This document shows positions 3,678 through 55,626 of a stretch of DNA of 64,000 nucleotides, piece by piece. The position numbers were made by a program, and so were the translations under genes. The notes beneath the pieces are model-generated. The model saw nothing but the letters and a program-made list of their open reading frames with translations. It was not told where the DNA came from and did no database searches. Positions within the stretch are counted from its first letter, which is position 1; each line of letters begins with the position of its first letter. The DNA is taken from NCBI GenBank assembly GCA_964443975.1, contig CAYUFS010000031.1, forward strand, positions 549-64,548. Direction: 5' to 3'. This DNA is from an uncultured Myxococcales bacterium (GTDB lineage: Bacteria; Myxococcota_A; Polyangia; Fen-1088).

Positions 3678-3678
3678 G

Positions 3679-4170: not shown

Positions 4171-4192
4171 CCCCTCCGAGGAGAACCATTCC

Positions 4193-6070: not shown

Positions 6071-6095
6071 GCCCCCTTCAACCAGGAGATCAGAC

Positions 6096-6479: not shown

Positions 6480-6934
6480 ATCCCCACTTCCCAGATCCGA
6501 ACACCCTGGCGACGCTGGTCACCAACGTGACGAACACGATGTGTGGCATCTCGTTCGAGCCGGACCACGACTACCAGCACGACGCGGACGCCCCGTGGCG
6601 CCTGGCGACCCTGGCGATCCCGGGCCAGCGATCGATCGTCGTGGCGCTGTGCTCCAGCCTGGCGGGCTGCCAGGCGCTCGGCGCCGCGCTGTTCTCCTGC
6701 CCAGCGGACACGCTGGATCAGTCGATGCTCGACGACTCCCTCTGCGAGCTGCTCAACATGGCGGCCGGTCAGATCAAGAGCGCGCTCGGCCTCGACCAGG
6801 CGCTGGGCTTGCCGAAGATCGTCGAGGAGCCCGATCTCAACAAGAAGGTGGAGCGGGCGGTACGTGAGGGCGTGATGCTGCGAAGTCCCCAGAATCACGG
6901 CCTCCTCATCTGGGTTTCCGAGGGCGGGCTCTAG
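6476..6934 (+). CDS. cheX: CheX-like phosphatase
   Basis: About 150 aa with LCELLNMAAGQIK (ExxN motif); start overlaps the cheY stop. Confidence 0.75.
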   Translation: MNPHFPDPNTLATLVTNVTNTMCGISFEPDHDYQHDADAPWRLATLAIPGQRSIVVALCSSLAGCQALGAALFSCPADTLDQSMLDDSLCELLNMAAGQIKSALGLDQALGLPKIVEEPDLNKKVERAVREGVMLRSPQNHGLLIWVSEGGL

Positions 6935-6963
6935 GTTTTCCGTAAGGCGAAGAGGAGACGACG

Positions 6964-9041: not shown

Positions 9042-9096
9042 TGCAACCCTCGAACAAGTCAGCGACTCCGACAGCGACGCGGCAGGGCCGCGCGCC

Positions 9097-10215
9097 ATGA
9101 CGCTCGCGGCCTCCGCGAATCCCGATTCGGTCGCCCGCTTGCGGGTCCTCGTGGTCGACGACTCCGTCGTAGTCCGGCGGATGCTGACGACCGCCATCGA
9201 CCGGGATCCGGCGCTGCAGGTGGTGGGCACCGCCTCGAACGGCCGCCTGGCCCTCGCCAAATTGCAGCAGTCCCCGTGCGATGTCGTGACGCTCGACGTG
9301 GAGATGCCGGAGCTCGGCGGCCTCGAGACGCTCGCCGCCATCCGCCGACAGTTTCCGCAGCTCCCGGTGTTGATGTGCAGCTCGATGACCGAGCGCGGGG
9401 CCGTCACGACGCTCGAGGCCCTGTCCCGCGGCGCCAACGACTACATCACGAAGCCGACCACGGACGCCGCGCAGAACGGTTTCGGCTCCGAGCTGGTCGA
9501 GAAGATCAAGACGCTGGGCCGCGCGATCCGCAGGCCCGTCGAGCCTGTGCAGGCGCGGCGCACGGTGACACCGCCCCCGTCCCCCGCCCCACCGGCGCCA
9601 AGGTCCGCGGCGGCCGAGCCCGCCGCCGCCATCGCGATCGGGACGTCGACGGGTGGCCCGAACGCGCTCGCGGAGGTGATCCCGCAGCTCCCGGCCGGCC
9701 TGGCGGTGCCCGTGTTCATCGTCCAGCACATGCCGCCCGTGTTCACGAAGATGCTCGCCGACCGGTTGGCCCGGGTGTCGGCCCTGCCCGTGCACGAGGC
9801 CCGCCAGGGGGACCTCGCGCAGGCCGGGCACGTGTACATCGCACCCGGCGACTGGCACATGACGGTGGTCCGGGAAGGCGCGCGCGTCAGCATCTCCTTG
9901 AACCAGGGCCCGCCCGAGAGCTCCTGTCGGCCCGCGGTCGATCCGTTGTTTCGCTCCATCGCCGCCGCGTACGGCCCGGCCGCGCTCGCCGTGGTGCTGA
10001 CGGGCATGGGCAAGGACGGCCTGAACGGCTGCGAGCTGATTCGCGCGGCGGGTGGCGTCGTGCTCGCCCAGGACGAGCCGACCTCGGTGGTCTGGGGGAT
10101 GCCGGGCTTCGTGGCGGGCGCCGGCCTCGCGGACGAGGTGGTGCCGTTGCAAAGGGTGGCGGCCGCCATCGTGCGGCGCACCCGCGGCGGTCGCGCCGGG
10201 GGCGGAACGCCATGA
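9097..10215 (+). CDS. cheB: Chemotaxis response regulator methylesterase CheB
   Basis: N-terminal REC; IGTSTGGP, VQHMP, VLTGMGKDG methylesterase motifs. Confidence 0.97.
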   Translation: MTLAASANPDSVARLRVLVVDDSVVVRRMLTTAIDRDPALQVVGTASNGRLALAKLQQSPCDVVTLDVEMPELGGLETLAAIRRQFPQLPVLMCSSMTERGAVTTLEALSRGANDYITKPTTDAAQNGFGSELVEKIKTLGRAIRRPVEPVQARRTVTPPPSPAPPAPRSAAAEPAAAIAIGTSTGGPNALAEVIPQLPAGLAVPVFIVQHMPPVFTKMLADRLARVSALPVHEARQGDLAQAGHVYIAPGDWHMTVVREGARVSISLNQGPPESSCRPAVDPLFRSIAAAYGPAALAVVLTGMGKDGLNGCELIRAAGGVVLAQDEPTSVVWGMPGFVAGAGLADEVVPLQRVAAAIVRRTRGGRAGGGTP

Positions 10216-11030
10216 TGCCGCCCAGCCCGGCAGCGTCGCAGTTCCTGCGCAAACTGATCCTCAAGGGCTCGGCGATCGTCCTCGATGATCAGAAGGACTA
10301 CCTGCTGCAAGCCCGGCTCGGGCCCCTGATCGAGAAGGAAGGTCTCACGACCTGGGACGAGCTCGTGAGGCGCCTCACTGCGCCCGGCACCGTCGCGCTT
10401 CGCCAGCGGGTGATCGAGGCGGTGACGACCCACGAGACCTCGTTCTTTCGGGACTGGCACCCCTTCGAGGCGATGCAGGCGCACCTGCTTCCAGCGCTCG
10501 CCCTCGAGAGTCGCAAGCGCGCCATTCACATCTGGTCGGCGGCAGCGTCGAGCGGTCAGGAGATCTACAGCCTGGCGTTCCTCGCGGCGCAGCAGCCGGG
10601 CATGGACCTCGGTCACGTCCGCTTCATCGCCACCGACATCTCGTCCGAGATCCTCGCCAAGGCGCGCGACGGGAAATACAGCCAGCTGGAGGTGAGCCGC
10701 GGGCTCCCCGCGCGCCTTCTGTTGCGCTACTTCGACAAGCTGGGCGTCGAATACCGGGTCAAGGATGACATCCGCCGGCTGATCGAGTTCCGTCCCCTCA
10801 ACCTGATCGAAGCCTGGCCGGCCCTGCCCGAGATGGACGTCGTGTTCCTGCGCAACGTCCTCATCTATTTCGACGTCCCCACGAAGCGCCTGATCATCGA
10901 CCGCATCGCCCGCACCATGCGCAAGGGCGGCTATCTGTTCCTGGGAGGGGTCGAGAGCACGCTCAACCTCACCGACCGCTTCACGGAGGTCCACGTGGGA
11001 AAAACCACGTGCCACCAGCTGGCCCGATGA
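10212..11030 (+). CDS. cheR: Chemotaxis methyltransferase CheR
   Basis: ATG at 10212 overlaps the cheB end; TTHETSFFRD, IWSAAASSGQE, ATDIS, FLRNVLIYFD. Confidence 0.95.
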   Translation: MMPPSPAASQFLRKLILKGSAIVLDDQKDYLLQARLGPLIEKEGLTTWDELVRRLTAPGTVALRQRVIEAVTTHETSFFRDWHPFEAMQAHLLPALALESRKRAIHIWSAAASSGQEIYSLAFLAAQQPGMDLGHVRFIATDISSEILAKARDGKYSQLEVSRGLPARLLLRYFDKLGVEYRVKDDIRRLIEFRPLNLIEAWPALPEMDVVFLRNVLIYFDVPTKRLIIDRIARTMRKGGYLFLGGVESTLNLTDRFTEVHVGKTTCHQLAR

Positions 11031-19932: not shown

Positions 19933-20981
19933 GGCCAAGGACCCGAGTCCTCCAGGGAGAGGGTCTCCGGCAAGCCAAGCATCAGGTTCATGTTCTGGAC
20001 GGCCTGTCCCGCGCCTCCCTTGATCAGGTTGTCGGTGGCGCTGACCACGACCAGCGTTCGCGTCCCGTCTCGAGCCTCCCCGAGCGTGAACCCCACCTCG
20101 GCGAAGTTCGAGCCGGAGACAGCCGCCACCTCGGGCAACCGGTCGCGGACGAAGCGGACGAAGGGCTCGCTGTCGTAGGCCGCCGCGTAGAGCGCCGCCA
20201 GCGACGCGGGCGTCTCCGCCGCGTCGACCTCCACGAACGAAGTGGCCAGGATTCCCCGCGACAGGGGCGCCGACACGGGCACGAAGCGCAGCTGGACGTC
20301 CGGGGCGCCGGCCGCCGCCAGCGTCTCGAGGATCTCGGGCGTGTGCTGGTGATCGAGCACGCGGTATGTCTTCAAGTTGACCGCGCGCACCGGGTGGTGC
20401 GTCCCCGCCGACGGCTGCACGCCGCTGCCGGACGACCCGGTGATGCCGACGACCCGCACGAGGCCGCGCAATTTCCCCGCCCGCGCCAGGGGCAGCAAGG
20501 CCAGCTCGACGGTGGTCGCGAAGCAGCCGGGCGAAGCGACGGCGCGCGCGCCGCGAATGGCGTCGCGGTTGAGCTCGGGCAAACCATAGACGAACGTGCC
20601 GAGCAGCTCGGGGCGGGGGTGAGGCGAGCCGTAGAAGCGCGCATACGCCCCGGCGTCGCGCAAACGAAAGTCGCCAGACATGTCCACCACCCTGGCTCCC
20701 GTCGCCAGCACGGCGGGGACGCTCTGGGCGCTCACCTTGTGCGGGAGGCCCATCAGGACCACGTCGCAACCCGCGGCAGCCGCCGCTGGCGACAGATCCT
20801 CGAAGCGGAGCGCGGTCCGGCCGGTCAGCGAAAGGTGCACGGCGCCGAGCGGCTCGCCCACGTGATCGATGCTGGCCACCCGGGCGAGGTCGACCTCGGG
20901 GTGCAGCAAGAGGCGCCTGATGATCTCCGCCCCCCCGTAACCGCTACCCCCGACGACCGCGGCCCGAAAGCGCTTCGTCAT
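19929..20981 (-). CDS. argC: N-acetyl-gamma-glutamyl-phosphate reductase
   Basis: VVGGSGYGGAE, LPHKVSA, DMSGDFRL, VYGLPE, ASPGCFAT, HQHTPEI, DNLIKGGAGQAVQNMN. Confidence 0.95.
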   Translation of the reverse strand: MTKRFRAAVVGGSGYGGAEIIRRLLLHPEVDLARVASIDHVGEPLGAVHLSLTGRTALRFEDLSPAAAAAGCDVVLMGLPHKVSAQSVPAVLATGARVVDMSGDFRLRDAGAYARFYGSPHPRPELLGTFVYGLPELNRDAIRGARAVASPGCFATTVELALLPLARAGKLRGLVRVVGITGSSGSGVQPSAGTHHPVRAVNLKTYRVLDHQHTPEILETLAAAGAPDVQLRFVPVSAPLSRGILATSFVEVDAAETPASLAALYAAAYDSEPFVRFVRDRLPEVAAVSGSNFAEVGFTLGEARDGTRTLVVVSATDNLIKGGAGQAVQNMNLMLGLPETLSLEDSGPWP

Positions 20982-21478
20982 CCTGAAAAAGGACCCTCAA
21001 AGGGTCCTTTAAATCCCCCGCGACGGCGCATGCGAGCAAAGCTCGCCTGCACCAACGCGTCCTGAAAAAGGACCCTCAATGGGTCCCCTTTAATCCCCCG
21101 CGACGGCGCATGCGAGCAAAGCTCGCCTGCACCAACGCGTCCTGAAAAAGGACCCTCAATGGGTCCCCTTTAATCCCCCGCGACGGCGCATGCGAGCAAA
21201 GCTCGCCTGCACCAACGCGTCCTGAAAAAGGACCCTCAAAGGGTCCCCTTTAATCCCCCGCGACGGTGCATGCGAGCAAAGCTCGCCTCCGCCAACGCGT
21301 CCTGAAAAAGGACCCTCAATGGGTCCCCTTTAATCCCCCGCGACGGCGCATGCGAGCAAAGCTCGCCTGCACCAACGCGTCCTGAAAAAGGACCCTCAAA
21401 GGGTCCCCTTTAATCCCCCGCGACGGTGCATGCGAGCAAAGCTCGCCTCCGCCAACGCGTCCTGAAAAAGGACCCTCA
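20981..21478. repeat. Tandem array of an 80-bp double-hairpin unit (6 copies plus a 19-nt partial copy)
   Basis: Units start at 20981 (79 nt), 21060, 21140, 21220, 21300, 21380 and 21460 (partial). Consensus TCCTGAAAAAGGACCCTCAAWGGGTCCCCTTTAATCCCCCGCGACGGYGCATGCGAGCAAAGCTCGCCTSCRCCAACGCG. Confidence 0.98.
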
Positions 21479-41359: not shown

Positions 41360-43198
41360 TTACATGCTGCCGGCGATGCGGCTGCGGAAGGCGTCGCTCA
41401 TCACGATCGAGCGAATCACGCTCTGCAAGCTGCCGTCGGTCGACTGCGCCTTGGCAGACAGGTAACCGATCCACGAACCGTCGTCGGTCTGATTCATGAG
41501 CCGGCCGATGCCGAAGGTCATGAACTTCTGGGTCACGCAGCTCGGCAAACGAGGGTCGCTTGCGATGATGCCGCCAAGCTGGATGGCGCCATTGAACATC
41601 GTGCCGTCCGGCAGGACGCCGCTCGAATCGACCTGAGCGCCCGAATCCGTGGTGCGATAGGCACCAACGGCGTCATAGTTCTCGAGGCCGAAACCAATTG
41701 GATCCATCAGGTTGTGGCAGGGGCTGCAGTTCGGGCTTGCCCGGTGCATTTCCATGCGCTGCCGGAGAGTCTGGCCGGGCACCACCATTTCACTCAGCGG
41801 CGGAATGTTCGCCGGCGGATCCGGGACCTCGTCGCACAAGAGCCGACGGAACACGTACTCGCCACGGCGCACCGGAGACGTGCGGTTCGGGTAGGCGGTG
41901 TTCGTCAGGAACGCCCCGAGCGTCAGGAGCCCCTGGCGCGTGGTGCCCGTGGTGTCCACCTTCACGAAGTCGGTGGCGTTGGACGCGCCCGTGCGGTTGA
42001 GGCCGTAGTACGTCGCCAGGTTCGCGTCGACGAAGGTGAAGGGCGCGTTGAGGATCCCGGTCACGTTGAGGGGATTGTGCAAGAACTCTTGCATGTACCG
42101 GCGGGCCTCACCCTTGAACGACGTCTCGAGCGCGTTCGTGTAGAGCGGGTACAGCATGACGTCGACGTCGTGCGAATCGAGGCTCACGAAGTCGAGCCAC
42201 TTGCCCGAGAAGTTGTCGAGCAGCGTATCGGCGCGCGGATCGGCGAGCATGCGCGTCACCTGCGCGGAGACCTGGTCGTCGGTCGTCAGCTGTCCCATAT
42301 CCGCCGCCGTAGACAGCGTGGCGTCGGGCATCGTGCTCCACAGCGCGTACGAGAGCCGGGTGGCGAGCTCGTAGGAATTGAGGCGCCGGACCGTCCCCGA
42401 GTTCGGATCCGGATCGATCTCTAGCTTGTAGAGGAAGTAGGGCGAGATGAGGACACCCTCCAGTGCCGCCTTGATGCCGTCGAGGGCCGTGAGGCCGAGC
42501 GTCTTGGCAGCGGTGTAAGGCGCCATCATCGCCGTCACCTCATCCGTGGTCGCCGGGCGACGCCACGCCTTGCGCGCGAAGGCCGTCAGAATCGTCTTGG
42601 CGCAGGTGTCGCCCGCCGTCATGACATCGCACGTCGCGACCGTCTTCTGTCGCGTCGCATCCGAGAAAAGATCCGTGATCAAGCTGGTCGCCGCCTGCTC
42701 GTAGCTGACGACATACTCCGGCGCGGTGCTGAGGGCCGAACCGACCGTGTCGAACTCGGCGCCGAGATCATCGCCCGGGAACGTGTCACCCGGGGTCAGC
42801 TTGGTGCCGAGCAGGTCGGCGACGGTGTTGTTGTACTCGACCCGATTGAGTCGTCGCACCACCATGTACCCAGGGTTTTGCGGGGGATTCGCCGGGACGG
42901 TCACGACGACCGTGCCCCCCGATCCGCCTGAACCCGAGCTGGTCTTGGTCCCGCCAGTTCCGGCGGAGCCGCCCGAGACGGTCGTTCCCCCCGTCCCCGA
43001 GCCGCCGGCGGTCTTGGTCCCGCCGCTCCCGCTGCCATTGTTCACCCCACCCGACGTGCCACCCGAGCCTGAGCCCGAGCCCGCCCCCGGAGCGCCGTTC
43101 GAGCCGGGCTTCGGGTTCATGACGGCGCCGGTACATCCCAGCGACAGCAGCAGCGCGATACTCGCGCCTGCCATCAGGCCATGATTCAAGCGTTCCAT
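41360..43198 (-). CDS. DUF1587/1595/1592/1588/1585 (PSD) domain lipoprotein with one CxxCH motif
   Basis: Lipobox LGC and Gly/Thr linker; RRLNRVEYNNTV, FARKAWRRP, LATRLSYALW, TSPVRRG, CSPCH, DPIGFGLENYDAVG. Confidence 0.9.
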   Translation of the reverse strand: MERLNHGLMAGASIALLLSLGCTGAVMNPKPGSNGAPGAGSGSGSGGTSGGVNNGSGSGGTKTAGGSGTGGTTVSGGSAGTGGTKTSSGSGGSGGTVVVTVPANPPQNPGYMVVRRLNRVEYNNTVADLLGTKLTPGDTFPGDDLGAEFDTVGSALSTAPEYVVSYEQAATSLITDLFSDATRQKTVATCDVMTAGDTCAKTILTAFARKAWRRPATTDEVTAMMAPYTAAKTLGLTALDGIKAALEGVLISPYFLYKLEIDPDPNSGTVRRLNSYELATRLSYALWSTMPDATLSTAADMGQLTTDDQVSAQVTRMLADPRADTLLDNFSGKWLDFVSLDSHDVDVMLYPLYTNALETSFKGEARRYMQEFLHNPLNVTGILNAPFTFVDANLATYYGLNRTGASNATDFVKVDTTGTTRQGLLTLGAFLTNTAYPNRTSPVRRGEYVFRRLLCDEVPDPPANIPPLSEMVVPGQTLRQRMEMHRASPNCSPCHNLMDPIGFGLENYDAVGAYRTTDSGAQVDSSGVLPDGTMFNGAIQLGGIIASDPRLPSCVTQKFMTFGIGRLMNQTDDGSWIGYLSAKAQSTDGSLQSVIRSIVMSDAFRSRIAGSM

Positions 43199-44625
43199 GC
43201 GAGCGCCTCCTTGCCATCGTTGCCGAAGGCCGTCACTTTCACACCGAAAAGGCTGAGCAGCTGGATGTAGAAATCGCCGTACGTCTTGACGTTCGAATAG
43301 TCGGTCCCGACGGCGTTGGGATACTGAACGAGTCGGTTCGGCTTGATGAGCCCGCCGAGTTGGCCAAGAACCACGGTGGGCAGATTGTCGTGATTGTGGC
43401 GGTTGCCGTCGCCAATCTCGCTGCTCATGACGATGGCGCTGTTGTACAGCATGTCGTGTCCGTCGGCGTCCATCAGCGACTTCATCTTCTGCACGAAGGT
43501 GCTGATCCAGATCATCTTGTACAGGGAGATCTGGTGGTAGACCTCCATGAGCCCCGCGTCGCTACCGTAGTGCGAGGACTGGTGATCCGAGGTGGCACCC
43601 CCCGCCTTTGCTCCGGCTGCCGCGACCGCGGGGACGAAGCTGTAGTTTCGGCTGGTCACCGCATCCGACAGCATGAACGTGATGACCCGCGTTATGTCGC
43701 ACTGGAAGGCGATGGCGATCAGGCTGTGCATGAAGTCGACCTGGTTCTTGTAGTCGACGCCGGTCAGACCGTTCTTGTCGGAGGGATTCACCGCGGGCCC
43801 GGGAACCGTCGGCGGCGTACAGGACCCGGCCGCGGGCGCGTTCTGCAGTTCCTGCTCGAGCGACCGGATGCCCGTGAACAGCTGGTCGAGCTTCGCGCTG
43901 TCGGCCGCATTGAGCTTGTTCTGCAGGGCGCTCTGGTACGGCATCACGCTATCGAGGACGCTCTTCCTTAGCGCTGCGCGCATCTGGGCGTCGGCGTTGC
44001 TGGCGGTCGGGCTGACCCCCATGAACAGCCGGTTGAAGGCGGTCTGCGCGTCGACGATCTTGCCGAGCGGGGTGCCAGCGCCAACCGGGAAAGACATGGT
44101 CCCGTCGGAGTTCGTCACCGACGGTGCCTGCCAGGAGATATTCCGCGTGAAGTACGTTCCGAAAGAGTCGGTCGGGCCTCCGTTGCCCGTACCGAGCTGG
44201 ATCGAGTTGATTCCCCGGCAGCCCGACAGCGCGTCGCCGATGATCTGGTCCACCGACTTGCTCATTTGCTGGGAATTTGGCGTCGCCATACGAGCCGTGA
44301 GGATGGCCCCGGCGCCGAGAGCGTGGTCACCCGTCTGCCGACGACGCTGCTGGTTCTCGAGCCCGGTGATGTAGGTCATGTCCGCCTGGTAGGGCGCCCA
44401 GGTCGGCATGGTGATGGGCAACCCCCAGGTGGCGCCAGCGCCGGTCGGGTTGTGGTCCTGCATGTAGTTGCCGTTCGGGTAGTGGTAGAACATGAACCGC
44501 TTGATGGGCGCGCAGGTCGCGGCGCCCGCCTTGCGGGTCCACATGAGCGAAGGCAACATCGGAAGCGTCACGGTCACGCCCGCCGAAGTTATGAATCGTC
44601 GCCTCGAGAATCGTCCGCTGAACAT
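43186..44625 (-). CDS. DUF1552 (HXXSHH) family protein with Tat-like signal
   Basis: CAGGAG RBS before ATG 44625; SRRRFI, TLPML, AFQCDITRVIT, HQSSHY, SEIGDGNRH. Confidence 0.9.
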   Translation of the reverse strand: MFSGRFSRRRFITSAGVTVTLPMLPSLMWTRKAGAATCAPIKRFMFYHYPNGNYMQDHNPTGAGATWGLPITMPTWAPYQADMTYITGLENQQRRRQTGDHALGAGAILTARMATPNSQQMSKSVDQIIGDALSGCRGINSIQLGTGNGGPTDSFGTYFTRNISWQAPSVTNSDGTMSFPVGAGTPLGKIVDAQTAFNRLFMGVSPTASNADAQMRAALRKSVLDSVMPYQSALQNKLNAADSAKLDQLFTGIRSLEQELQNAPAAGSCTPPTVPGPAVNPSDKNGLTGVDYKNQVDFMHSLIAIAFQCDITRVITFMLSDAVTSRNYSFVPAVAAAGAKAGGATSDHQSSHYGSDAGLMEVYHQISLYKMIWISTFVQKMKSLMDADGHDMLYNSAIVMSSEIGDGNRHNHDNLPTVVLGQLGGLIKPNRLVQYPNAVGTDYSNVKTYGDFYIQLLSLFGVKVTAFGNDGKEALAWNA

Positions 44626-44944
44626 TGCTGTCTCCTGGAGGATGGTGAGCTTAACAGCCGAAGTCGCCACGCATCGGCGTACGCGCAGCTTGCATCTTCT
44701 TGCGTTGGGTGACCGAGAAAAGCGCCGCCGACGAGGGGGTCGCGCCTTCGAAAAAGGTGCTTGGCCTTGGTGGAACACACTGCCTCGACATCGGACACCT
44801 CCCTAGCAAGGTCCTCGGGGACCGGCACCTGTCTTACCATTTCCAGGCCGAGCCGGACTCTCACCGTTGGTGCGCAGATACCAGATGGGTCTAACCATTA
44901 CTGCGCGGATGCGCGTTCCAAGGGATCCAGAAAAGACTAAACTT

Positions 44945-46160: not shown

Positions 46161-46766
46161 ATGAACCTGCCTCGCGCGATGGTGGTGCTCTTCGGCTTCG
46201 GCTTGGCGATGTCCGCGAGGCCGTCGTCCGCCGCAGGCGGGGATGACGCCCGCCGCCCCGCCACGCCCGCTCCGGCGGACCTGAACGAGCCGGCGCCGAC
46301 CACCCCTTCCCTTTACGACCACCCGTGGGTCTGGCGCGACGATGACGGCGCGGCGCTGTCACTCGCCCGTTTTCGCGGCTCGACCGTGGTCATCACCATG
46401 GGCTACGCCTCATGCCAGGTGCGGTGCCCCCCGACCATCACCAAGCTGCAACACCTCGAGCGCGCCTTCGCGAAGCAGGGACGCCCCGTGAGCTTCATCC
46501 TCGTGACCATCGACCCGGCGACCGACACGCCCGCGCGACTGGCGGCGCTGCGGCGCGACCGGAACCTGACCCCAGGCGTGTGGCACTTGCTGTCCGGCCC
46601 TGAGTCGCAGACGCGCGAGCTGGCGCGCCTGCTCGACATTGCCTACGTGGACGCCGGCGGACACTTCGAACATCAGGTTCGCGTCATCGTCCTCGACGCC
46701 CGCGGTCGCGTCGCCCGTCGCTTCGAAGGCTGGCACTTCGACGACGCGTCGGCGCTATCGCCCTGA
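46161..46766 (+). CDS. SCO1/SenC family copper chaperone
   Basis: Signal peptide; YASCQVRCP (CxxxC), VTIDPATDTP, distal His in FEHQ. Confidence 0.88.
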   Translation: MNLPRAMVVLFGFGLAMSARPSSAAGGDDARRPATPAPADLNEPAPTTPSLYDHPWVWRDDDGAALSLARFRGSTVVITMGYASCQVRCPPTITKLQHLERAFAKQGRPVSFILVTIDPATDTPARLAALRRDRNLTPGVWHLLSGPESQTRELARLLDIAYVDAGGHFEHQVRVIVLDARGRVARRFEGWHFDDASALSP

Positions 46767-46978: not shown

Positions 46979-48151
46979 GTGGACCAGGCAGACAGTCAGG
47001 AATCGAAGGGTTTCGAGGGTAGAAACGGTGTCTGCCGGGGGCGAGGGCAACCCCGCGGATGGTGGCCTCCGCGCCGCTCCCCTCGCCTCGCGGCGCGACC
47101 GGTCGTCGCCGTCGCCGCGGCCACGCTCGGCCTCGTGCTGCTCGCCGCGCCCGCGCGCGCCCAGGTGGCGCTGAACCTGTACGGCAACGCCGACTATCAC
47201 GCGATGAAGGACAGCGGGCAGACCACCAACGCCTTCGGAACGGCGCTGGCGGACGTGTTCCTGTCGGGGACCAAGGAGAAGCTCTCCTACCTGGCGGAGT
47301 TCGTGTTCGAGGTCGGCGACAACAACGAGTTCGCCGTCGACGTCGAGCGGCTTCAGCTCGGATACCAGGTGACTGAATGGTTCCGGGTCGCGGCCGGGCG
47401 CTTTCACACGGCCTTCGGCTACATCAACGACAGCTACCACCACGGCGCCTACTACCTGCTTTCGACGGGTCGTCCGACCTTCGTGAACTTCGAGGACGGC
47501 GGTGGCCTGATCCCGGCCCACAGCGTGGGCTTGCACATCGACGGCCGGTTTCACCTGGGCTCGTCGCGGTTGCGCTACGACGCCGAGCTCGCAAACGGAC
47601 GCGCTGCCACATCCGATCAGGTGACGAACCGGATCGATCCGAACAATGGCAAGGCGGTCAACCTCCGCCTTCGCCTCGAACCGGGCGGCGTGCTCGACGG
47701 CCTCGTCTTCGGCGGCAACGTCTACCTCGACACGATCGACACGACGGACGCCCTGATGGTCCCCGTTCGGATGAGCGAGCAGGCCTACGGGGCACACCTC
47801 GCCTATATGGAGCACAACGTTCACCTGATCTCGGAGACGGCCTTGTTCCGCCACGTCGAGAGCAACGGCGGGCCCACGCACCAGACCGTGGCCACGTTCG
47901 TGGAGCTCGGATACAGCTTCGCCGAGCTCACGCCTTATGCTCGCTACGAGCGCACCTCGTTCGGGAGCGGGCCCGTCGATCCCTACTGGGCGGCGGGAGC
48001 GGCGGCGCGGGGCAGCTTTCACGTCGTGACCGGCGGCCTCAACTACCTCGCCTCCGACAGCGTGGCCCTCAAGCTCGAGGGCAAGTACCAGCACTTCGAC
48101 TCGAACCAGACCTCGAAGGGTCTCTCCGCGCAGGTGGCCTATGCGTTCTAA
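46979..48151 (+). CDS. Outer-membrane porin-like beta-barrel
   Basis: GAGGAGG RBS before GTG; signal peptide ending ARA-Q; VERLQLGY, AGRFHTAFG, alternating strands, C-terminal QVAYAF. Confidence 0.82.
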   Translation: MDQADSQESKGFEGRNGVCRGRGQPRGWWPPRRSPRLAARPVVAVAAATLGLVLLAAPARAQVALNLYGNADYHAMKDSGQTTNAFGTALADVFLSGTKEKLSYLAEFVFEVGDNNEFAVDVERLQLGYQVTEWFRVAAGRFHTAFGYINDSYHHGAYYLLSTGRPTFVNFEDGGGLIPAHSVGLHIDGRFHLGSSRLRYDAELANGRAATSDQVTNRIDPNNGKAVNLRLRLEPGGVLDGLVFGGNVYLDTIDTTDALMVPVRMSEQAYGAHLAYMEHNVHLISETALFRHVESNGGPTHQTVATFVELGYSFAELTPYARYERTSFGSGPVDPYWAAGAAARGSFHVVTGGLNYLASDSVALKLEGKYQHFDSNQTSKGLSAQVAYAF

Positions 48152-48617
48152 GTCGCGACGAGATGGGCGCTGGCTGTGGCGGCTCGCGGGCTTCCTGGGA
48201 GTGCTGACGATGTTCCTGGCCGCGGTGGCGGCGGCGGCCGGGCCGAGCCCGTACGTGTTGATCAAGAACGCGCGGAACAAGTCCATCGCCACCATCAGCA
48301 AGGCCGACGCCCGCGATATCTTCACCGGGAAACGGAAGCTCTGGTCGACGGGCGAGGTCGTCCAGATCGTGCTCCGCCCCGGCGAGGGCGACGGCATCGA
48401 GTGGCTGGCCCAGGACGTCTTCGGCGTGTCCCCTCGAAACCTGCTCACCAAGATCCGGCAGGAGGTGTTCAAGGGCGAGATGGCCAAGCCCATCGTCGCA
48501 GCCTCCGACGAGGAGACGATCAAACAGGTGGTGAGCGTGGGCGGGGCCATCGGCATCATCCCGGCCCCTCTGGCGGCGAAGCTGCCCGCTGAAGCGGTCG
48601 TATTGCCCATCAACTGA
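48141..48617 (+). CDS. Small exported protein resembling one lobe of a phosphate-binding (PBP2) protein
   Basis: Signal peptide; ISKADARDIFTGKRKLW, SDEETIKQV..GAIGII; overlaps the porin stop. Confidence 0.72.
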   Translation: MRSKSRRDGRWLWRLAGFLGVLTMFLAAVAAAAGPSPYVLIKNARNKSIATISKADARDIFTGKRKLWSTGEVVQIVLRPGEGDGIEWLAQDVFGVSPRNLLTKIRQEVFKGEMAKPIVAASDEETIKQVVSVGGAIGIIPAPLAAKLPAEAVVLPIN

Positions 48618-48629
48618 GGAACAACAGCG

Positions 48630-50693
48630 ATGAACTCAACAGCGCCCGGGCCTTCGAAGGAGGGGCGGACCCTCAAGCTGAAACTACTGCTTGGGTGTCT
48701 GACTCCGCTCCTGGTGGCGGTGATCTGCCAGGGCCTCTACACGGTGACTGCGCAACGCAAGGCGCTGATCGGTGGCCTCGAGGAGAAGGGTCGCTCGCTG
48801 GGCGCGCTGATGGTGAACGTGGTCGGCCCCAGCCTGGCCCTCGACGATCTGCCCGGCGCCACGGAGGGCCTCGGCTTCATCGCCAAGGACGCCGACTTCG
48901 CGTTCTCGGCGGCGCTCGCGCCCGATGGCAGGGTGCTGAGCTTCGTCGGTCCCGAGGCCGCGCGGCCCCTGCTCGCCGCCTCGGCCTCCGCTGTGAAGGC
49001 TCCCAGTCTGGTCGTCGGACGGGAGGTCCTGGTGGCCCTCTATCCGCTCAAGCCAGGGACCACCGACCTCGGCACGGTCGCGGTGGGCCTCAAGACCAGC
49101 AACGTGCGCGCCGCCGCGAACCGAATGGTGGCGCGCGTCGTCCTGATCGCGGCGGTCGGGATCATGATCGCCGTCCTGGTCGTCCTGTTGCTGGCGGCCG
49201 CGATCGTCCGCAGAAACCGCGATCTCAAGCTGATCATGGACAACGTGGGCCAGGGCTTCATGAGCGTGAAGCGCGGCGGCGAGGTCCTGCCCGAGCACTC
49301 CGCCATCCTCGAGAGCTGGTTCGGCGCCTGGCAGTCGGGCGCGCCCTTCTGGGGCTACATCGGCGGCGCCTCGAAGAAGCTGGAAAGCTGGTTCGAGCTG
49401 ATGTGGGACAACGTTCGTTCCGACGTGCTGCCGGTGGAGATCGCTCTCGAGCAACTGCCGGTGCGGGCCGAGGTCGGAGGCAAGACCTTCGAGTTTCAGT
49501 ACAAGCCCATCTTCAAGGGCGCCCACCTCCTCCACATCATGTTCGTGATCTCGGACATCACCGCGCTCGTGGAACAGGAGCACGCGAGCTCGGAGCAGCG
49601 TGAGCTGATGAGCTTGTTTCAGTGGCTGCTGAAGGATCGGACCGGCCTCCTCGAGTTCTTTCACGACGCCAACGGCCTGGTGCAGCAGTCGGCCACCTGG
49701 GGCGACGACGATCTCGGCGCCCTCAAGCGCAACATTCACACGCTGAAGGGCAACGCCTCGGTGTTCCGGCTCGAGAGCGTCACCCGGGTCTGCGAGGCCA
49801 TCGAGAACCGCTGGGCCGATGGGGCAGACGGGCGTCTGTCGGACGATGAGATCGCGGTCCTGCTCGCCACGTGGAAGGGCGTTCAGGACCGGATGTTGCG
49901 ACTGCTCGACGGCGACGACGCCCGCCGCTTGGAGATCGAGCTGCACGAGCACGACGAGCTCATCGCCGCGATCGAGCGGCAAGAGCCGCACGCGGCGCTG
50001 TTCGAGATCGCCCGCGCATGGACCTTCGAGCCGATGAAGCAACGCCTGGGGCGCTACGGCAAGCAGGCGGGCGAGCTGGCCCGCCGCCTGAACAAGGGTG
50101 AGCTCACCGTCCGCGTGGAAGCGGACGGCGTTCGGTTGCCGCAGGGGATGCTGGCGCCCTTCTGGTCATCCGCCGCCCACCTGATCCGAAACGCGGTGGA
50201 CCACGGCATCGAAACCCCCGACGAGCGGCGTGACGCCGGCAAGGATGGCCCCGCCGTCCTGGTGTTGCACGCCTCCCGACAGGATGAAGGTCTGGTCGTC
50301 GCCATCGAGGACAATGGGCGCGGCATCTCGTGGGACAAGCTCGCGGAGAAGGCGCGCGCCGCTGGGCTGCCGTCGTCTTCGCGGGAGGATCTGGTCGCTG
50401 CCTTGTTCGCGGACGGCATCACCACCCGCGAGGGAGCGACGGAGGTGTCGGGGCGTGGGGTGGGGATGAGCGCGGTCCGTGAGGCCTGCGAGGCCACTGG
50501 CGGCCGGCTCTCGGTCTGGAGCGAGCCGGGCAAGGGCACGCGCTTCGAGTTCGCCTGGCCACGCACGCTGCTGGAGCCCGCTCGCGACCATGAGGTGACG
50601 AAAGCAGCCGCCTCGGCCACGGGAGCACCAAGGAGTGGTTCGGAGGCGAGACCTGGCACAGGCAAGGTGGCTCCGAAGAAGGTGGCTGCCTGA
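48630..50693 (+). CDS. Membrane-anchored CheA-like histidine kinase (TM-periplasmic domain-TM, PAS-like, Hpt, CheA-type HATPase, no CheW domain)
   Basis: Two TM helices; IMDNVGQGF...SDIT (PAS-like); NIHTLKGNAS (Hpt); HLIRNAVDHGIE, IEDNGRGI, EVSGRGVGM; ends shortly after the ATPase domain. Confidence 0.88.
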   Translation: MNSTAPGPSKEGRTLKLKLLLGCLTPLLVAVICQGLYTVTAQRKALIGGLEEKGRSLGALMVNVVGPSLALDDLPGATEGLGFIAKDADFAFSAALAPDGRVLSFVGPEAARPLLAASASAVKAPSLVVGREVLVALYPLKPGTTDLGTVAVGLKTSNVRAAANRMVARVVLIAAVGIMIAVLVVLLLAAAIVRRNRDLKLIMDNVGQGFMSVKRGGEVLPEHSAILESWFGAWQSGAPFWGYIGGASKKLESWFELMWDNVRSDVLPVEIALEQLPVRAEVGGKTFEFQYKPIFKGAHLLHIMFVISDITALVEQEHASSEQRELMSLFQWLLKDRTGLLEFFHDANGLVQQSATWGDDDLGALKRNIHTLKGNASVFRLESVTRVCEAIENRWADGADGRLSDDEIAVLLATWKGVQDRMLRLLDGDDARRLEIELHEHDELIAAIERQEPHAALFEIARAWTFEPMKQRLGRYGKQAGELARRLNKGELTVRVEADGVRLPQGMLAPFWSSAAHLIRNAVDHGIETPDERRDAGKDGPAVLVLHASRQDEGLVVAIEDNGRGISWDKLAEKARAAGLPSSSREDLVAALFADGITTREGATEVSGRGVGMSAVREACEATGGRLSVWSEPGKGTRFEFAWPRTLLEPARDHEVTKAAASATGAPRSGSEARPGTGKVAPKKVAA

Positions 50694-51658
50694 TGACCGG
50701 CCAGAGCCTGTCCCTCTCCACGGTCATCCAGGCGGTCGCCGACGCCGTGCGCAAGCAGCACGCCGAGCTGCGCGACGAGATCGCGATGGTTCAGAGCGTG
50801 AGCGAACGCGAGGTGCTCGCCGCGGGGGGGGCCATCGCAAAGATCTTCGAGGAGATGACCGAGCACACGGCGCGCCTGTCCGCGCTCAAGGCGCACGAAT
50901 CGAGCGACAGCGCCAAGGGCTCGTTCGCGGCCGTGCTCACCCGCTTCGCGGGCGAGATGCCGGCGCTGCTTGGCGTGCTCGTGAGCGAGACCACGTCCCA
51001 ATCGCGCCTCGCCAGCGGCGCCGCCGCCCAGATTCGCGAGGTGACGAACCTGGCCGAGGACATGTCCCGGATCGCCCAGTGGTGCCGGGTGGTGGCAAGC
51101 AACGCGCGCGTCGAGGCCGCCCACGCAGGCGAGCTGGGTGCCGGGTTCGCCGTCCTCGCGGACTCGCTGGCGGCCATGTCGAACGACATCGCGCGGGCCA
51201 CGAAGTCCATCCAGGACCGAGCGACGGCGGTGAGGGGCATCGTGTCGGAGATGGCCGATGGGGCCGCCAAGGTCGCGGCGGAGGGGCGCGCCCGCACGGC
51301 GACCATGAAGGCCTCGGTGGGCGAGTGCCAGAAGGCGTACCAGGACGGCGTCGTGGGATCGATCCATGGGTTCGAACAGAACGCAGCCTCCATTCGCGAT
51401 CGCTCGAACGCGGCGCTCAGCCACCTGCAGTTCCAGGACCGCCTTCAGCAATCCCTGGATCACGTGCTCGAGGGGAACGCGCGCATCGTCGCCGGGCTGG
51501 AATCCCTGGCGGCCGACCTGGCCGGGGCCGACGCGCCCGCGTCGATCGAGGGGCTCGAGGAGGTCCTGCACCAGCTCTTCACGAACGCCTCCGCGCTGGC
51601 GGTCGTGCGGGATCTCGCCGGAAGCGAGCGCTCGGACGGCGAGATCCAATTTCTCTGA
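50693..51658 (+). CDS. Soluble MCP-signalling-domain-like coiled-coil protein with C-terminal QFQD motif
   Basis: No TM segment; degenerate tip VVASNARVEAAHAGELGAGFAVLA; LSHLQFQDRLQQ; ATG overlaps the upstream stop. Confidence 0.78.
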   Translation: MTGQSLSLSTVIQAVADAVRKQHAELRDEIAMVQSVSEREVLAAGGAIAKIFEEMTEHTARLSALKAHESSDSAKGSFAAVLTRFAGEMPALLGVLVSETTSQSRLASGAAAQIREVTNLAEDMSRIAQWCRVVASNARVEAAHAGELGAGFAVLADSLAAMSNDIARATKSIQDRATAVRGIVSEMADGAAKVAAEGRARTATMKASVGECQKAYQDGVVGSIHGFEQNAASIRDRSNAALSHLQFQDRLQQSLDHVLEGNARIVAGLESLAADLAGADAPASIEGLEEVLHQLFTNASALAVVRDLAGSERSDGEIQFL

Positions 51659-51682
51659 TCTGACTCACGAAGGGAACCTCAC

Positions 51683-52051
51683 ATGGCGAACCAGAAGACC
51701 ATCCTCATTGTCGATGACTCCGCGACCGTCCGGCAAATGCTCACGTTGACCTTGACCGGTGGTGGCTTCAACGTCGTCGCCGCGGAGAACGGGGCCGAGG
51801 GGCTCGCGGCGGCAAAGAAGCAGAAGGCGGACCTCGTGATCTCGGACGTCAACATGCCGGTCATGACCGGCCTGCAGATGATCGCGGAGATCCGCAAGCT
51901 GCCGAGCTACGCGAAGACACCGATCTTCGTCCTGACGACCGAGTCGGGAGCGCGGGTCGCCGAAGGCAAGGCCGTGGGCGCCTCGGCCTGGATCGTGAAG
52001 CCTTTCAAGCCGGAGAGCCTGCTCGCCGGCGTGAAGCGCGCGACGGGCTAA
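51683..52051 (+). CDS. cheY: CheY-like single-domain response regulator
   Basis: IVDDS, ISDVNMP, LTTES, WIVKPF. Confidence 0.92.
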   Translation: MANQKTILIVDDSATVRQMLTLTLTGGGFNVVAAENGAEGLAAAKKQKADLVISDVNMPVMTGLQMIAEIRKLPSYAKTPIFVLTTESGARVAEGKAVGASAWIVKPFKPESLLAGVKRATG

Positions 52052-52294: not shown

Positions 52295-52900
52295 TCAGTG
52301 GATGCGGGGGGCGTGGGGCAAGGCCGCCAGGATCTCGGCTTCCGCGATGGAGAACGCGCGCACCCGCGCCTGAAAGTCGGCTTCCGGGACCAGGCTCGCG
52401 GCGAGCTCCAGGAAGATCTCGGCGTGCCTGTCCTCGGCGGTGGCGAGCACGCGATAGAACGGCCCCAGCTCCTCGTCGCCGGACGCCGCGAACCCGCGCG
52501 CCAGGAGGTCCAGCCGTTCGTGGGAGCGCGCTTCGATGAACGCCGCCACCAGCAACGTGTCCAGCAATCGCAGGGGCTCGCGATCCCGGACCTGAGCGAA
52601 CAGCCCGCGGGCATAGTGGTTGGGCGTGTCGGCCCGCGGCGCCCAGCCTCGTCGCGCCAGCAGCCCCGCCACCTGAATGACGTGGCTCGTCTCCTCGTGC
52701 GCCAGGCGGCCGAGCGCGTCGACCGAGCCACCCCGGTGCGGATACCGGCGAACCAACGACAGCGCGTTCTCCGCGGCCTTGCGCTCGCAGTGGAGGTGAT
52801 CCGACAGCAGCGCCTGCAGATCCGTCGTCGCCGCCGCGAACCAGCGCGGATGGGTCCCGCTCGCCAGGATGACGGGCAAGCCGGGGGACGAGCGCTCCAT
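52295..52900 (-). CDS. miaE: tRNA-(ms2io6A) hydroxylase, ferritin-like di-iron
   Basis: DHLHCERKAA, LAHEETSH, AAFIEARSHERL, AEDRH. Confidence 0.9.
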   Translation of the reverse strand: MERSSPGLPVILASGTHPRWFAAATTDLQALLSDHLHCERKAAENALSLVRRYPHRGGSVDALGRLAHEETSHVIQVAGLLARRGWAPRADTPNHYARGLFAQVRDREPLRLLDTLLVAAFIEARSHERLDLLARGFAASGDEELGPFYRVLATAEDRHAEIFLELAASLVPEADFQARVRAFSIAEAEILAALPHAPRIH

Positions 52901-52902
52901 CT

Positions 52903-55626
52903 TCAGGCGCGACCCGGGGCTGCCCCTCCGGACGGGCCCGCCTGCATGAGCTGACGCAGCACGTACGGCAGAATTCCCCCGTGCTGGTAGTAGGCCACCT
53001 CCTGCGGGGTGTCGATGCGCAAGATCGTCGAGAACTCCGTGACCCGGCCATCTACTGCGGTGGCGCGAACCTTCACCTGCCGCCCGGCCGAGAACCCGCC
53101 GGCGAGCGCCGCCGGCAGCCCCTGCGTCTCGAAGACCTCCTCGCCGTTGAGGTGTAGCTTCTCGGCGTTTTCGCCCGGCAGGAACTGCAAGGGGACGATC
53201 CCCATGCCCACCAGGTTCGAGCGGTGGATGCGCTCGTAGCTCTCGGCGATGACCAGGTGCACGCCGAGGAGCTTCGGTCCCTTGGCCGCCCAGTCGCGCG
53301 ATGAGCCGCTGCCGTACTCCTTGCCCGCCAGCACGACGAGGGGCACCTTGTCGCGAATGTACCTCTCCGACGCCTCGAAGATCGACATCAACGCCCCGTC
53401 CGGCAGGTGGCGCGTGACGCCGCCCTCGGTGCCTGGCGCGAGCAGGTTCTTGAGGCGGGTGTTCGCGAACGTGCCACGCACCATGACCTCGTGGTTTCCC
53501 CGCCGCGCGCCGTACGAGTTGAAGTCCTTCGGCTCGACGCCGCGTTCGATCAAGTACTTCCCCGCTGGCCCGTCCTTCTTGATCGATCCGGCGGGCGAGA
53601 TGTGGTCGGTTGTCACGCTGTCGCCCAGCACCGCGAGGACACGCGCCGCCTGCACCTCGCTCGTGGCCTGCGGCAAGGGTGGCATCCCCTCGAAGTACGG
53701 CGGATGCTTCACGTAGGTCGAATCGCCGGCCCAGGCGAAGGTTTCGCCCTGGGGGACCTCCATCTTCCGCCAGCGCTCGTCACCCTCGAAGACCACGGCA
53801 TAGCTTGCCCGAAAGTGCTCGGGCTTCACGGCGGCAGCGACCGCGGCAGCGACCTCGTCGTTCGTCGGCCATACGTCCTTCAGGAACACGGGCGCGCCGG
53901 TTCCGTCGTGTCCGAGCGGCTCGTTCTCGAGATCGATGTCGATGCGCCCCGCCAGCGCGAACGCCACCACCAGCGGGGGGGACATCAAGTAGTTCGCGCG
54001 CACGTCGGGGTTGATGCGACCCTCGAAGTTCCGGTTCCCCGACAGCACCGACGCAACCACCAGATCCCGTTCGTCGATCGCCCCGGAAATGTCGGCCGGC
54101 AGCGGCCCCGAGTTCCCGATGCACGTGGTGCAGCCGTAGCCCACCAGGTTGAACTTCAGCTTGTCGAGGAACGGGGTCAACCCTGCCGCGTTCAGGTACT
54201 CGGTCACGACCTTCGAGCCCGGAGCCAGCGAGGCCTTCACCCACGGCTTCACCGACAGCCCGCGCTCGACGGCCTTCTTGGCCACCAGGCCGGCCGCCAC
54301 CATCACGGAAGGATTCGACGTGTTCGTGCAGCTCGTGATCGCCGCGATGACCACGGAGCCGTGCTTGAGCTCGGGCGACTTCGGGGCCCCCGACACCACG
54401 GGCGCGTCCTTCTTCTTCGCCTTCACCAGCGACGGCAGCGCGTCGGTGAAGGACTTCTTCGCCGAGAACAGGGCCACCCGATCTTGCGGGCGCTTCGGGC
54501 CCGCGACGCTCGGCTCCACCGTCCCGAGATCGAGCTCCAGGGTGTCGGAGTAGGTCGCGTCCTTGGTGCCAGCGTCGAGGAACAACCCCTGTTCCCGCGC
54601 GTAGGCCTCGACCAGCGCCACCTGCTCGTCGGTACGGCCCGAAAAACGCAGGTAGCGGAGCGTCTCGGCGTCGACGGGAAAGAAGCCGCACGTCGCGCCG
54701 TACTCGGGCGCCATGTTCGCGATGGTCGCGCGGTCGGCGAGCGACAGCGCCCGCACGCCAGGGCCGAAGAACTCCACGAACTTTCCCACCACGCCCTTCT
54801 TGCGCAGGCGCTCGGTCACCGTCAGCACGAGGTCCGTCGCCGTCGAGCCCTCACGCATGATCCCGTGCAGCCGAAAGCCGACCACCTGCGGGATCAACAT
54901 CGACGTCGCCTGCCCCAGCATGGCCGCCTCGGCCTCGATCCCGCCGACGCCCCAGCCCAGCACCCCGAGGCCATTGATCATCGTGGTGTGCGAGTCCGTG
55001 CCCACCACCGAGTCCGGATACGCCAGCGTCTTGCCGTCGGCGGTCGCGGCGGTGAACACCACGCGCGCCAGGTACTCGAGGTTCACCTGGTGGACGATGC
55101 CCGTGTCCGGGGGGACGACCGCGAAGTTTCGCAGCGCGGACTGCCCCCAGCGCAGGAAGGTGTAGCGCTCGCGGTTCCGCGAGAACTCGATGCTGGCGTT
55201 CAGCGAGAACGCGCCGGCGTGTCCGGCCTCGTCCACCTGGACGGAGTGATCGATGACCAGCTCGGCGGGCAGCAGCGGATTGATCCGCGCCGGATCGCCC
55301 CCCATGCGTTTCATGGCGTCGCGCATCGCCGCCAGATCCACGACGGTGGGAACGCCGGTGAAATCCTGCAACAAGACCCGCGCCGGCATGAACGCGATCT
55401 CCGTGGCAGGCGTCGCTTGCGGATCCCAGGCACACAGGGCGCGGATGTCGCCCTCCTTGACCGTGCGTCCGTCCTCGAGCCGCAGCAGGTTCTCGAGCAG
55501 CACCTTCAGCGAATACGGCAGCCGCCCCACGTCCACGCCGGACTTCTGCAGGGCGGATAGCCGATAGATCTCGTACTCGCGGGTTCCCACCTTCAGCGTC
55601 GAGCGCGCGCCAAACGAATTCGCCAT
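52903..55626 (-). CDS. acnA: Aconitate hydratase A
   Basis: [63 protein letters not shown]. Confidence 0.98.

Follow-up and report, generated by a model that had tools for sequence, protein, structure and literature searches.

A five-gene operon at 46979-52051 of a 64,000-nucleotide (nt) stretch from an uncultured Myxococcales bacterium (contig CAYUFS010000031.1, positions 549 to 64,548; hereafter the window) can be read, with a probability of roughly 50%, as a stripped-down, chemotaxis-derived two-component pathway made up of two conserved modules. The operon is real, recurs in relatives and is built from known kinds of parts. Its main points of interest are a family of CheA-type kinases without the P5 domain, a recurrent input triad of outer-membrane barrel, periplasmic protein and transmembrane sensor, and the hypothesis that the McpA-like proteins resemble the phosphatase CheZ. 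All five open reading frames (ORFs) are present on the plus strand, and the features that concern us are the following:

46979..48151, +: outer-membrane beta-barrel, porin-like (full-length but sub-threshold Porin_4 match; signal peptide; C-terminal AYAF)
48141..48617, +: exported single-lobe PstS-like (PBP_like_2 lobe) periplasmic protein, without the SGT motif
48630-50693, +: whole kinase gene, with Hpt at residues 343-409 and HATPase_c at residues 516-645
48630..49214, +: kinase residues 1-195, with first transmembrane segment, divergent CHASE8-like periplasmic sensor and second transmembrane segment
49212..50189, +: kinase core, residues 195-520, with PAS-like region, Hpt and linker into P4
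50025..50693, +: kinase CheA-type P4 ATP-binding domain and disordered tail, no P5/CheW
50693..51658, +: soluble McpA-like protein with the helical hairpin of methyl-accepting chemotaxis proteins (MCPs); MCPsignal 33.6 bits
51683..52051, +: single-domain CheY-like response regulator; Response_reg E 2e-25

The barrel and periplasmic-protein genes overlap by 11 nt (48141 against 48151), a gap of 12 nt precedes the kinase gene, the kinase and McpA-like genes overlap by 1 nt at 50693, and 24 nt separate the latter from the CheY gene. These four junctions agree with the original prediction, made from the letters and ORFs alone, of five co-oriented genes with overlaps or gaps of at most 24 nt.

The usual picture of CheA is that of a soluble kinase under the sole control of receptor arrays, acting via CheW and P5. 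The kinase of the operon has an Hpt domain equivalent to the CheA P1 (Pfam E 9e-9), with the predicted phospho-acceptor His370 (nt 49737-49739) in the motif HTLKGNA, which is conserved across the family. Its HATPase_c domain (E 5e-17) is of the CheA P4 type: the best NCBIfam matches of the protein are CheA models (E 1e-36 and 1e-30, residues 435-647), with other kinase families at 7e-9 or weaker, and the N-box HLIRNAVDHGIE, the G1 box DNGRGI and the G2 box GRGVGM are all intact. The protein ends ~40 residues past P4. We found no P2 domain in it, and no P5/CheW domain (PF01584) either in it or in any of ~55 family members recovered with a word-indexed search. These relatives all combine Hpt and HATPase_c; in the family alignment the catalytic boxes and the Hpt histidine are conserved, the linker runs directly into P4 and nothing follows P4. 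Their N-termini vary, those recorded including CHASE8 with HAMP, PAS, Reg_prop/Y_Y_Y and multi-pass membrane domains. The PAS-like region of the window kinase bears a family-specific signature (RNRDLKLxxDNVGQGF...SDIT), and neither this region nor the Hpt-P4 linker matches any Pfam or NCBIfam model, even at E<=10. A search with the kinase core (residues 195-520, a query that takes in only the first ~55 residues and the N-box of P4) returned 951 clusters (50% identity) at E<=1e-30 among 1.84 billion representatives; among the 150 matches listed, nearly all span the full length of the core, in proteins of 449-2025 residues. Literature searches found no paper describing this P5-less family. The domain content thus supports the earlier proposal of a CheA-derived kinase without a CheW domain, which by its sequence should be unable to couple via CheW/P5.

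The fourth gene encodes a protein that scores just below the Pfam cut-off for MCPsignal (34.6 bits), and its profile matches MCP structures with E 1e-31. An AlphaFold2 model (pLDDT 80) shows a long helical hairpin whose best fold matches are the cytoplasmic domains of MCPs. The protein has no transmembrane segment, its sequence opening directly with the hairpin, and its tip (nt 51068-51190) is degenerate, retaining 21/41 family-consensus positions versus 28-40 in most of its ~78 detectable relatives. In an alignment of 74 sequences the invariant columns are N137, E141 and A142 of the tip, L245-Q246-F247-Q248-D249, and Q253. The latter columns fall in LQFQDRLQQ of the window protein (residues 245-253, nt 51425-51451), and QFQDxxxQ occurs in 78/78 relatives. 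The window protein ends in the peptide EIQFL (nt 51641-51655), and nearly all relatives end in an acidic-aliphatic-x-aromatic-aromatic pattern (e.g., EVTFF, DVELF and DIELF; TFF in 56/78). The gene adjoins one for a single-domain CheY in 9/9 contexts, namely the window and eight of the metagenomic or genomic contigs carrying homologues that we label L0xx (L005, L007, L009, L010, L013, L019, L020 and L021). Among these, L009, L010, L019 and L020 show the pairing within larger clusters, and clusters from Pseudomonas, Ideonella and metagenomic contigs open with the order McpA-like, CheY, STAS, CheA, MCP, CheW, CheR, CheD, CheB. At L021 (587-2896) the pair is followed by a gene for a 309-residue CheX-domain protein.

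These features place the protein, judged from its sequence, as a tip-eroded relative without transmembrane segments of the McpA/CttP (PA0180) receptors of F7 clusters. McpA-like receptors of ancestral F7 systems (CttP/PA0180, VCA1088) are of unclassifiable heptad class, are dispensable for array formation and have a strikingly conserved C-terminus whose role the literature leaves open (PMC7184735); the published motifs are EVELF, EIELF and DIELF (supplementary table 12 of the same paper), and the F7 stage 1-2 clusters with McpA-like genes have no cheZ (PMC7184735). The window protein shares with these receptors (PA0180, VCA1088, SO_2117) an MCP signalling domain of unassignable heptad class, a gene next to cheY and a C-terminus that fits [DE]-[VIL]-x-[LF]-[FL] and is not the CheR-binding pentapeptide, the endings EVTFF, DVELF and EIQFL seen here being comparable to the published ones. 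It differs in having no transmembrane region and a degraded tip, and in being partnered by a P5-less membrane kinase rather than a full F7 cluster, with no cheA, cheW, cheR, cheD or cheB alongside it. For PA0180, the QFQDxxxQ motif is deduced from relatives in Pseudomonas-type clusters (L009). Thus, the soluble MCP-like protein with eroded tip and QFQDxxxQ that had been predicted is present with all of these features, but it has published kin in the McpA-like receptors of F7 systems (PMC7184735).

The invariant motif links these proteins to CheZ, in which FQ together with DXXXQ are the most conserved residues (PMC7750401). F247-Q248-D249...Q253 of the window protein align with F141-Q142-D143...Q147 of CheZ in hhalign comparisons, and the best local match of the McpA-like family to E. 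coli CheZ, or to a CheZ alignment of five species assembled from plasmid records, lies at CheZ 131-159 or 105-165. The likeness extends to a helical-hairpin or four-helix-bundle architecture with the motif on the C-terminal helix, a cheY-adjacent gene, and the distance of ~70 residues between the catalytic aspartate and the C-terminus (72 residues in the window protein and 71 in E. coli CheZ), where both families conserve a hydrophobic peptide, although this reads EIQFL/EVTFF here versus DDLLxSLGF in CheZ. In six-frame ORFs from the window and the loci retrieved by that stage (774,000 residues in all), FQDxxxQ was found, McpA-like proteins apart, in E. coli CheZ and in just three other ORFs, none lying in an MCP gene; these three ORFs, one in L017 and two small ones in a tandem repeat of the window, are presumably chance occurrences. 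The Pfam CheZ profile (PF04344) matches 6/20 McpA-like relatives, all below threshold with a best E of 0.002, but not the window protein; the two matches with inspected coordinates share one region of the profile. Homology to CheZ beyond the motif is not statistically established: the register is correct in both the single-sequence and five-species comparisons, with a probability of ~1%. No significant similarity was found outside the motif, and the remainder of the McpA-like protein is an MCP signalling domain. The earlier claim of a CheZ-like motif beside CheY holds in its literal form, and the resemblance of McpA-like proteins to CheZ is at the level of the motif, so that phosphatase activity is a hypothesis drawn from sequence. 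Our literature searches found no paper that proposes McpA as a phosphatase or describes this module.

The same protein might instead serve as a receptor-like scaffold or regulator that binds or localises the kinase or CheY, or links them to an array elsewhere, with QFQDxxxQ and the C-terminal peptide used for binding. This we consider rather unlikely. It would sit well with a fold and sequence that are those of the MCP signalling hairpin, with the canonical array-forming tip kept by most relatives, with the report of P. aeruginosa McpA joining the F6 array (PMC7184735), with the weak CheZ homology statistics and with the CheX-domain protein beside the L021 pair. It is harder to reconcile with the window clade, where much of the array-forming tip has decayed while QFQDxxxQ is kept, with a kinase that has no P5 and an operon that has no CheW for the tip to contact, and with the fact that the invariant residues are exactly the catalytic Asp and Gln of CheZ and their FQ neighbours.

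The fifth gene encodes a single receiver domain with the conserved residues D11, D12, D55, T85 and K106, and a tryptophan at the position of CheY Y106. D55 (nt 51845-51847) is the predicted phospho-acceptor. This CheY is 44-59% identical to the CheYs paired with other McpA-like proteins versus 33% to E. coli CheY, and, with all catalytic residues in place, it is the canonical CheY that had been anticipated as the fifth gene.

The input side of the pathway is defined by the N-terminal sensor of the kinase. This region by itself has no direct Pfam match, even at E<=10. Its profile comparison with the N-termini of relatives that match Pfam CHASE8 gives a probability of 97.3% (hhalign, E 2e-11), and a weak NCBIfam match over residues 15-194 is to 'HK_near_YfiR_like' ("sensor histidine kinase, YfiR-like protein-associated"). 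A direct comparison with the single E. coli DgcN sequence was not significant. CHASE8 is the periplasmic domain of YfiN, which is regulated by YfiR (PMC8085984); by way of its CHASE8-bearing relatives, the kinase therefore has the architecture of a YfiBNR-type inner-membrane enzyme. The likeness to a three-layer YfiBNR relay that was originally suggested accordingly has a real basis, the sensor being a divergent CHASE8 of the YfiN type.

To follow the input genes independently of the kinase, the periplasmic protein alone was used in a metagenome scan, which yielded 33 loci at 36-50% identity and a further fragment (L056) at 71% over ~40 residues. The ORFs of the 33 loci were classified with phmmer and Pfam. 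Wherever a locus extends far enough upstream (~23), a homologue of the barrel immediately precedes the periplasmic-protein gene, and a protein whose N-terminus matches that of the window kinase, a sensor between two transmembrane segments, is encoded immediately downstream on the same strand in 21/26 informative loci. About half of these 21 have a P5-less Hpt kinase at this position, and others (L024/25, L030/31, L033, L034 and L038) a true MCP that combines a CHASE8-type sensor with HAMP and MCPsignal; among the MCP loci Pfam calls the sensor only in L024, and in the rest it is recognised by its match to the window kinase N-terminus. Overall, sensors 3' of periplasmic-protein genes match Pfam CHASE8 in L024, L029 and L044, with only L024 reaching the cut-off (28.8 versus 27 bits). 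Downstream of the MCP, L030 and L038 carry a canonical CheA that has both H-kinase_dim and CheW domains, then a further MCP and response regulators; in L039/L040 the sensor is placed divergently. The association of the triad thus appears to follow the sensor domain and not the transmitter. Because it tracks the sensor whatever the transmitter, the barrel and its periplasmic partner probably belong to the input; the recurrence of the triad is the strongest support for this available here. With regard to the trans-envelope relay of porin, binder and kinase in the original prediction, the barrel, periplasmic protein and sensor are indeed co-conserved, but ligand entry, capture and kinase control would be further steps that we can only propose.

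Alternatively, the barrel and periplasmic protein could form a transport or envelope-maintenance unit, for instance for metal handling together with SCO1 or HMA-like proteins, that is merely co-located with the signalling genes or controlled by them. Consistent with such a unit, L022 and L023 hold the pair by itself, several loci have SCO1 or HMA-like genes interleaved, and orphan kinases with the same sensor exist. We nevertheless think it clearly unlikely, given that the genes overlap or abut, that the association follows the CHASE8-like sensor whatever the transmitter in 21/26 informative loci, and that the sole response regulator of the operon has no DNA-binding output, which leaves no obvious route for regulating the barrel and periplasmic-protein genes.

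The periplasmic protein itself matches no Pfam or NCBIfam model, even at E<=10. Three of its relatives match positions 85-191 of the 267 of PBP_like_2 (E 0.006-0.013), which correspond to one lobe, and a 16-sequence profile matches PstS structures (E 0.002-0.004). It departs from the PstS type, with its two-lobe periplasmic-binding-protein fold and SGT loops, in that one lobe aligns and RxEDDxxF replaces SREDGSGT of PstS. The possibility that it is a homologue of YfiR was tried and rejected: the 16-sequence profile gave an hhalign probability of 0.1% against E. coli YfiR, and no DUF4154 match was found at E<=10.

The barrel matches Porin_4 over its full length at 24.3 bits (Pfam cut-off 27), and its family has no PDB match in a profile search and no NCBIfam match. 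Its signal peptide (...LLAAPARA/QV) is cleaved before Q62, with the mature protein starting at ~nt 47162; since the signal peptide ends at residue 61, the true start codon probably lies downstream of the annotated GTG at 46979. The family has invariant histidine-rich motifs (NDxYHHG and FEDxGGLIPAHSVGxHxDGR), which, on their sequence, may be metal-binding loops.

As for the cue, phosphate, one of the ligands put forward for screening with the original prediction, is not favoured, because the SGT motif of PstS is absent and the neighbours include SCO1 and exported CxxC-bearing HMA-like proteins. Three independent contexts show a SCO1/SenC gene (CxxxC) next to that of the barrel: the window (46161-46766), L008 (1861-2487) and L024/L025 (6005-6649, minus strand, divergent). 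It may represent a sixth gene or an accessory of the input module, and its position next to the barrel hints at a copper or redox link. In relatives, an exported HMA-like protein of ~200 residues with the metal-binding motif GMECxEC is encoded between the periplasmic-protein gene and the kinase operon (L005 6200-6808; L007 4754-5338, minus strand; L027 1606-2061); the window has no HMA-like gene. Speculatively, the SCO1 gene beside the barrel, the HMA-like neighbours with GMECxEC and the histidine-rich barrel motifs together suggest a cue other than phosphate, namely a metal or redox state.

Besides the window, only three close relatives, with 71-79% kinase identity, have the complete set of five genes:

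L008, kinase 79% identical: SCO1, barrel, periplasmic protein, kinase and start of McpA-like (contig ends)
L005/L006, kinase 72% identical: barrel, periplasmic protein, exported HMA-like, kinase, McpA-like, CheY
L007, kinase 71% identical: kinase, McpA-like, CheY; on the opposite strand HMA-like, periplasmic protein, barrel

Although inverted in L007, the genes for the barrel and periplasmic protein remain adjacent there to those for the kinase, McpA-like protein and CheY. A scan of GTDB species returned only 7 relatives, all of them metagenome-assembled genomes (MAGs) of uncultured Myxococcales or delta-proteobacteria, and none closer than 57%. The recurrence of the arrangement in relatives makes it more than chance. 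For the five-gene set proposed earlier, co-conservation is borne out as far as the arrangement recurs, but not for a single unit, since outside the window the full set is confined to the three close relatives. Instead, comparison of the loci indicates two separable conserved modules, input and output, joined by one kinase family.

Putting together the observed domain content, gene order, co-conservation of the modules and invariance of the motif, we propose the following course of events. In the input, the barrel and the one-lobe PstS-like protein would act with the CHASE8-like periplasmic domain of the kinase; on the model of YfiB-YfiR-YfiN, the periplasmic protein would bind or release the sensor in response to a cue from the envelope or periplasm, possibly a metal or redox state and not phosphate. 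The signal would then pass through the second transmembrane segment and the PAS-like domain to the CheA-type P4, which would phosphorylate His370 in the Hpt of the same kinase without receptor arrays, CheW or P5. From His370 the phosphoryl group would be transferred to D55 of the adjacent CheY. For the reset, the McpA-like protein, with FQDxxxQ on its C-terminal helix and its hydrophobic C-terminal peptide, would speed the dephosphorylation of phosphorylated CheY (CheY-P). In this scheme we infer the protein-protein contacts, the phosphatase activity, the stimulus and the target of CheY-P.

Several observations weigh against the pathway as proposed. On the output side, the statistics for CheZ homology are weak (hhalign probability 0.6-1.2%, pairwise E 0.04-0.1), and QFQDxxxQ may be a convergent motif or serve another role; further, the CheX-domain protein after the L021 pair indicates that a separate phosphatase can coexist with a McpA-like protein. 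On the input side, the periplasmic protein has no similarity to YfiR, its AlphaFold2 model (from a five-sequence alignment) is unusable at pLDDT 52, and in L022/L023 the barrel/periplasmic pair occurs without any sensor nearby. As to the kinase, the P3 dimerisation domain H-kinase_dim (PF02895) was found neither in it nor in its ~55 relatives but was present in the canonical CheAs of the same searches. Finally, the same sensor occurs in kinases of 49-57% identity that, with the exception of L013, are orphans without barrel, periplasmic-protein, McpA-like or CheY neighbours.

This exception bears on a further possibility: the kinase might be accessory to the canonical chemosensory cluster that lies ~36 kb upstream in the window, needing its MCP/CheW or feeding its CheY, in which case the operon would not be CheW-independent. 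That cluster comprises:

1299-11030: canonical chemosensory cluster as a whole
1299-3677: CheA
between CheA and the MCP, as listed: CheW
4193-6070: MCP
~6096: CheY
6964-8151: larger, second response regulator
9097-10215: CheB
after CheB, listed last: CheR

The original statement that cheW, cheR and cheB are lacking is thus correct for the operon, with none of them within 46-52 kb, but not for the neighbourhood; the nearest place where cheW, an MCP with intact tip and cheR/cheB occur together is this cluster at 1.3-11 kb. Besides the presence of a full che cluster in the same window, the accessory role is favoured by L013 (5151-16986), from an uncultured Myxococcales MAG, where a P5-less CHASE8-like kinase 56% identical to that of the window is found in a cluster of two response regulators and STAS, HDOD, the kinase, CheY, McpA-like, globin-PAS-MCP, CheB and CheA-CheW-REC; here, from gene content, a single CheY/McpA-like pair appears to serve both the P5-less kinase and a full CheA. 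We regard such a role as highly improbable for the window kinase, which has no P5 or other known array-docking domain, carries its own transmembrane sensor and has its own adjacent CheY, and most members of whose family are encoded far from che genes.

Compared to the canonical MCP-CheW-CheA-CheY/CheZ pathway, the operon has a CheA-type P1 and P4, a single-domain CheY and an MCP hairpin with the CheZ motif. It differs in that the kinase has no P2, detectable P3 or P5 and instead possesses its own transmembrane sensor and PAS-like domain, that CheW, CheR and CheB are missing from the operon, and that the 'receptor' is a soluble protein whose tip has degenerated. With YfiBNR (TpbB) it shares a three-layer make-up from adjacent genes: one protein in the outer membrane, a small one in the periplasm and, in the inner membrane, an enzyme with a CHASE8-type domain. 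Its periplasmic protein, however, is PstS-like and not YfiR/DUF4154, its outer-membrane component is a Porin_4-like barrel and not an OmpA/Pal-like lipoprotein, and its output is a CheA-type kinase (Hpt and HATPase_c) or an MCP and not a GGDEF cyclase. Two further precedents are MBP-Tar, where a binding protein provides an indirect input to a transmembrane chemoreceptor, and CheA3/CheA4 of R. sphaeroides, which are split or atypical CheAs without some of the five canonical domains (see also PMC6829392). The periplasmic protein resembles the former as a binding-type protein that would act as indirect input to a transmembrane sensor, but consists of a single lobe and is encoded with an outer-membrane barrel; the kinase resembles the latter as a member of the CheA lineage with missing domains, but is wholly without P5 and is itself the transmembrane sensor. 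In keeping with the initial statement that no characterised system has this composition, our literature searches found no paper describing the operon.

The genes flanking the operon are as follows:

46161..46766, +: SCO1/SenC-family exported protein with CxxxC (SCQVRCP); Pfam SCO1-SenC E 1e-17
52295-52900, -: MiaE tRNA hydroxylase, downstream flank
52903-55626, -: aconitase, downstream flank

The last two, housekeeping genes on the opposite strand, mark the 3' end of the operon. A scan of the operon region (68% GC) for promoters and terminators found none. The GC content is ~67-70% throughout the window, and an origin of the region by horizontal transfer was rejected, as its composition shows no anomaly. 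A few kb from the operon, the window has a gene pair for PSD/PSCyt (DUF1585-1595) and HXXSHH (DUF1552) proteins (41360-44778, minus strand). Another Myxococcales MAG has such a pair (L003/L004, 1082-4218) immediately 5' of the gene for a distant P5-less kinase (P0054); this repeated proximity may be a coincidence. Elsewhere in the window, a tandem array at 20981-21478 has 6.2 copies of an 80-nt unit with 96% matches; each unit holds a short inverted repeat (GGACCCT...AGGGTCC), and the array overlaps small repeated 63-residue ORFs on the minus strand.

A broader reading joins the two modules in a single proposal: McpA-like 'receptors', including those of the PA0180/VCA1088 type, would use an MCP hairpin as the scaffold of a CheZ-type phosphatase for CheY-P, and the barrel, one-lobe PstS-like protein and CHASE8 sensor would form a previously unrecognised trans-envelope input module that drives either P5-less kinases or ordinary MCPs. 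We hold this combination to be possible, if somewhat doubtful. Were McpA-like proteins to carry the CheZ active site, this would explain the role of McpA in F7 systems, the absence of cheZ from them and the way in which CheY-P is reset. The ~950 clusters with a CheA core minus P5, wired to transmembrane sensors, would amount to an overlooked route from the chemotaxis machinery to two-component signalling. The presence of the triad upstream of both kinases and MCPs suggests a general means of relaying outer-membrane and periplasmic signals inward, one that parallels YfiBNR with unrelated components.

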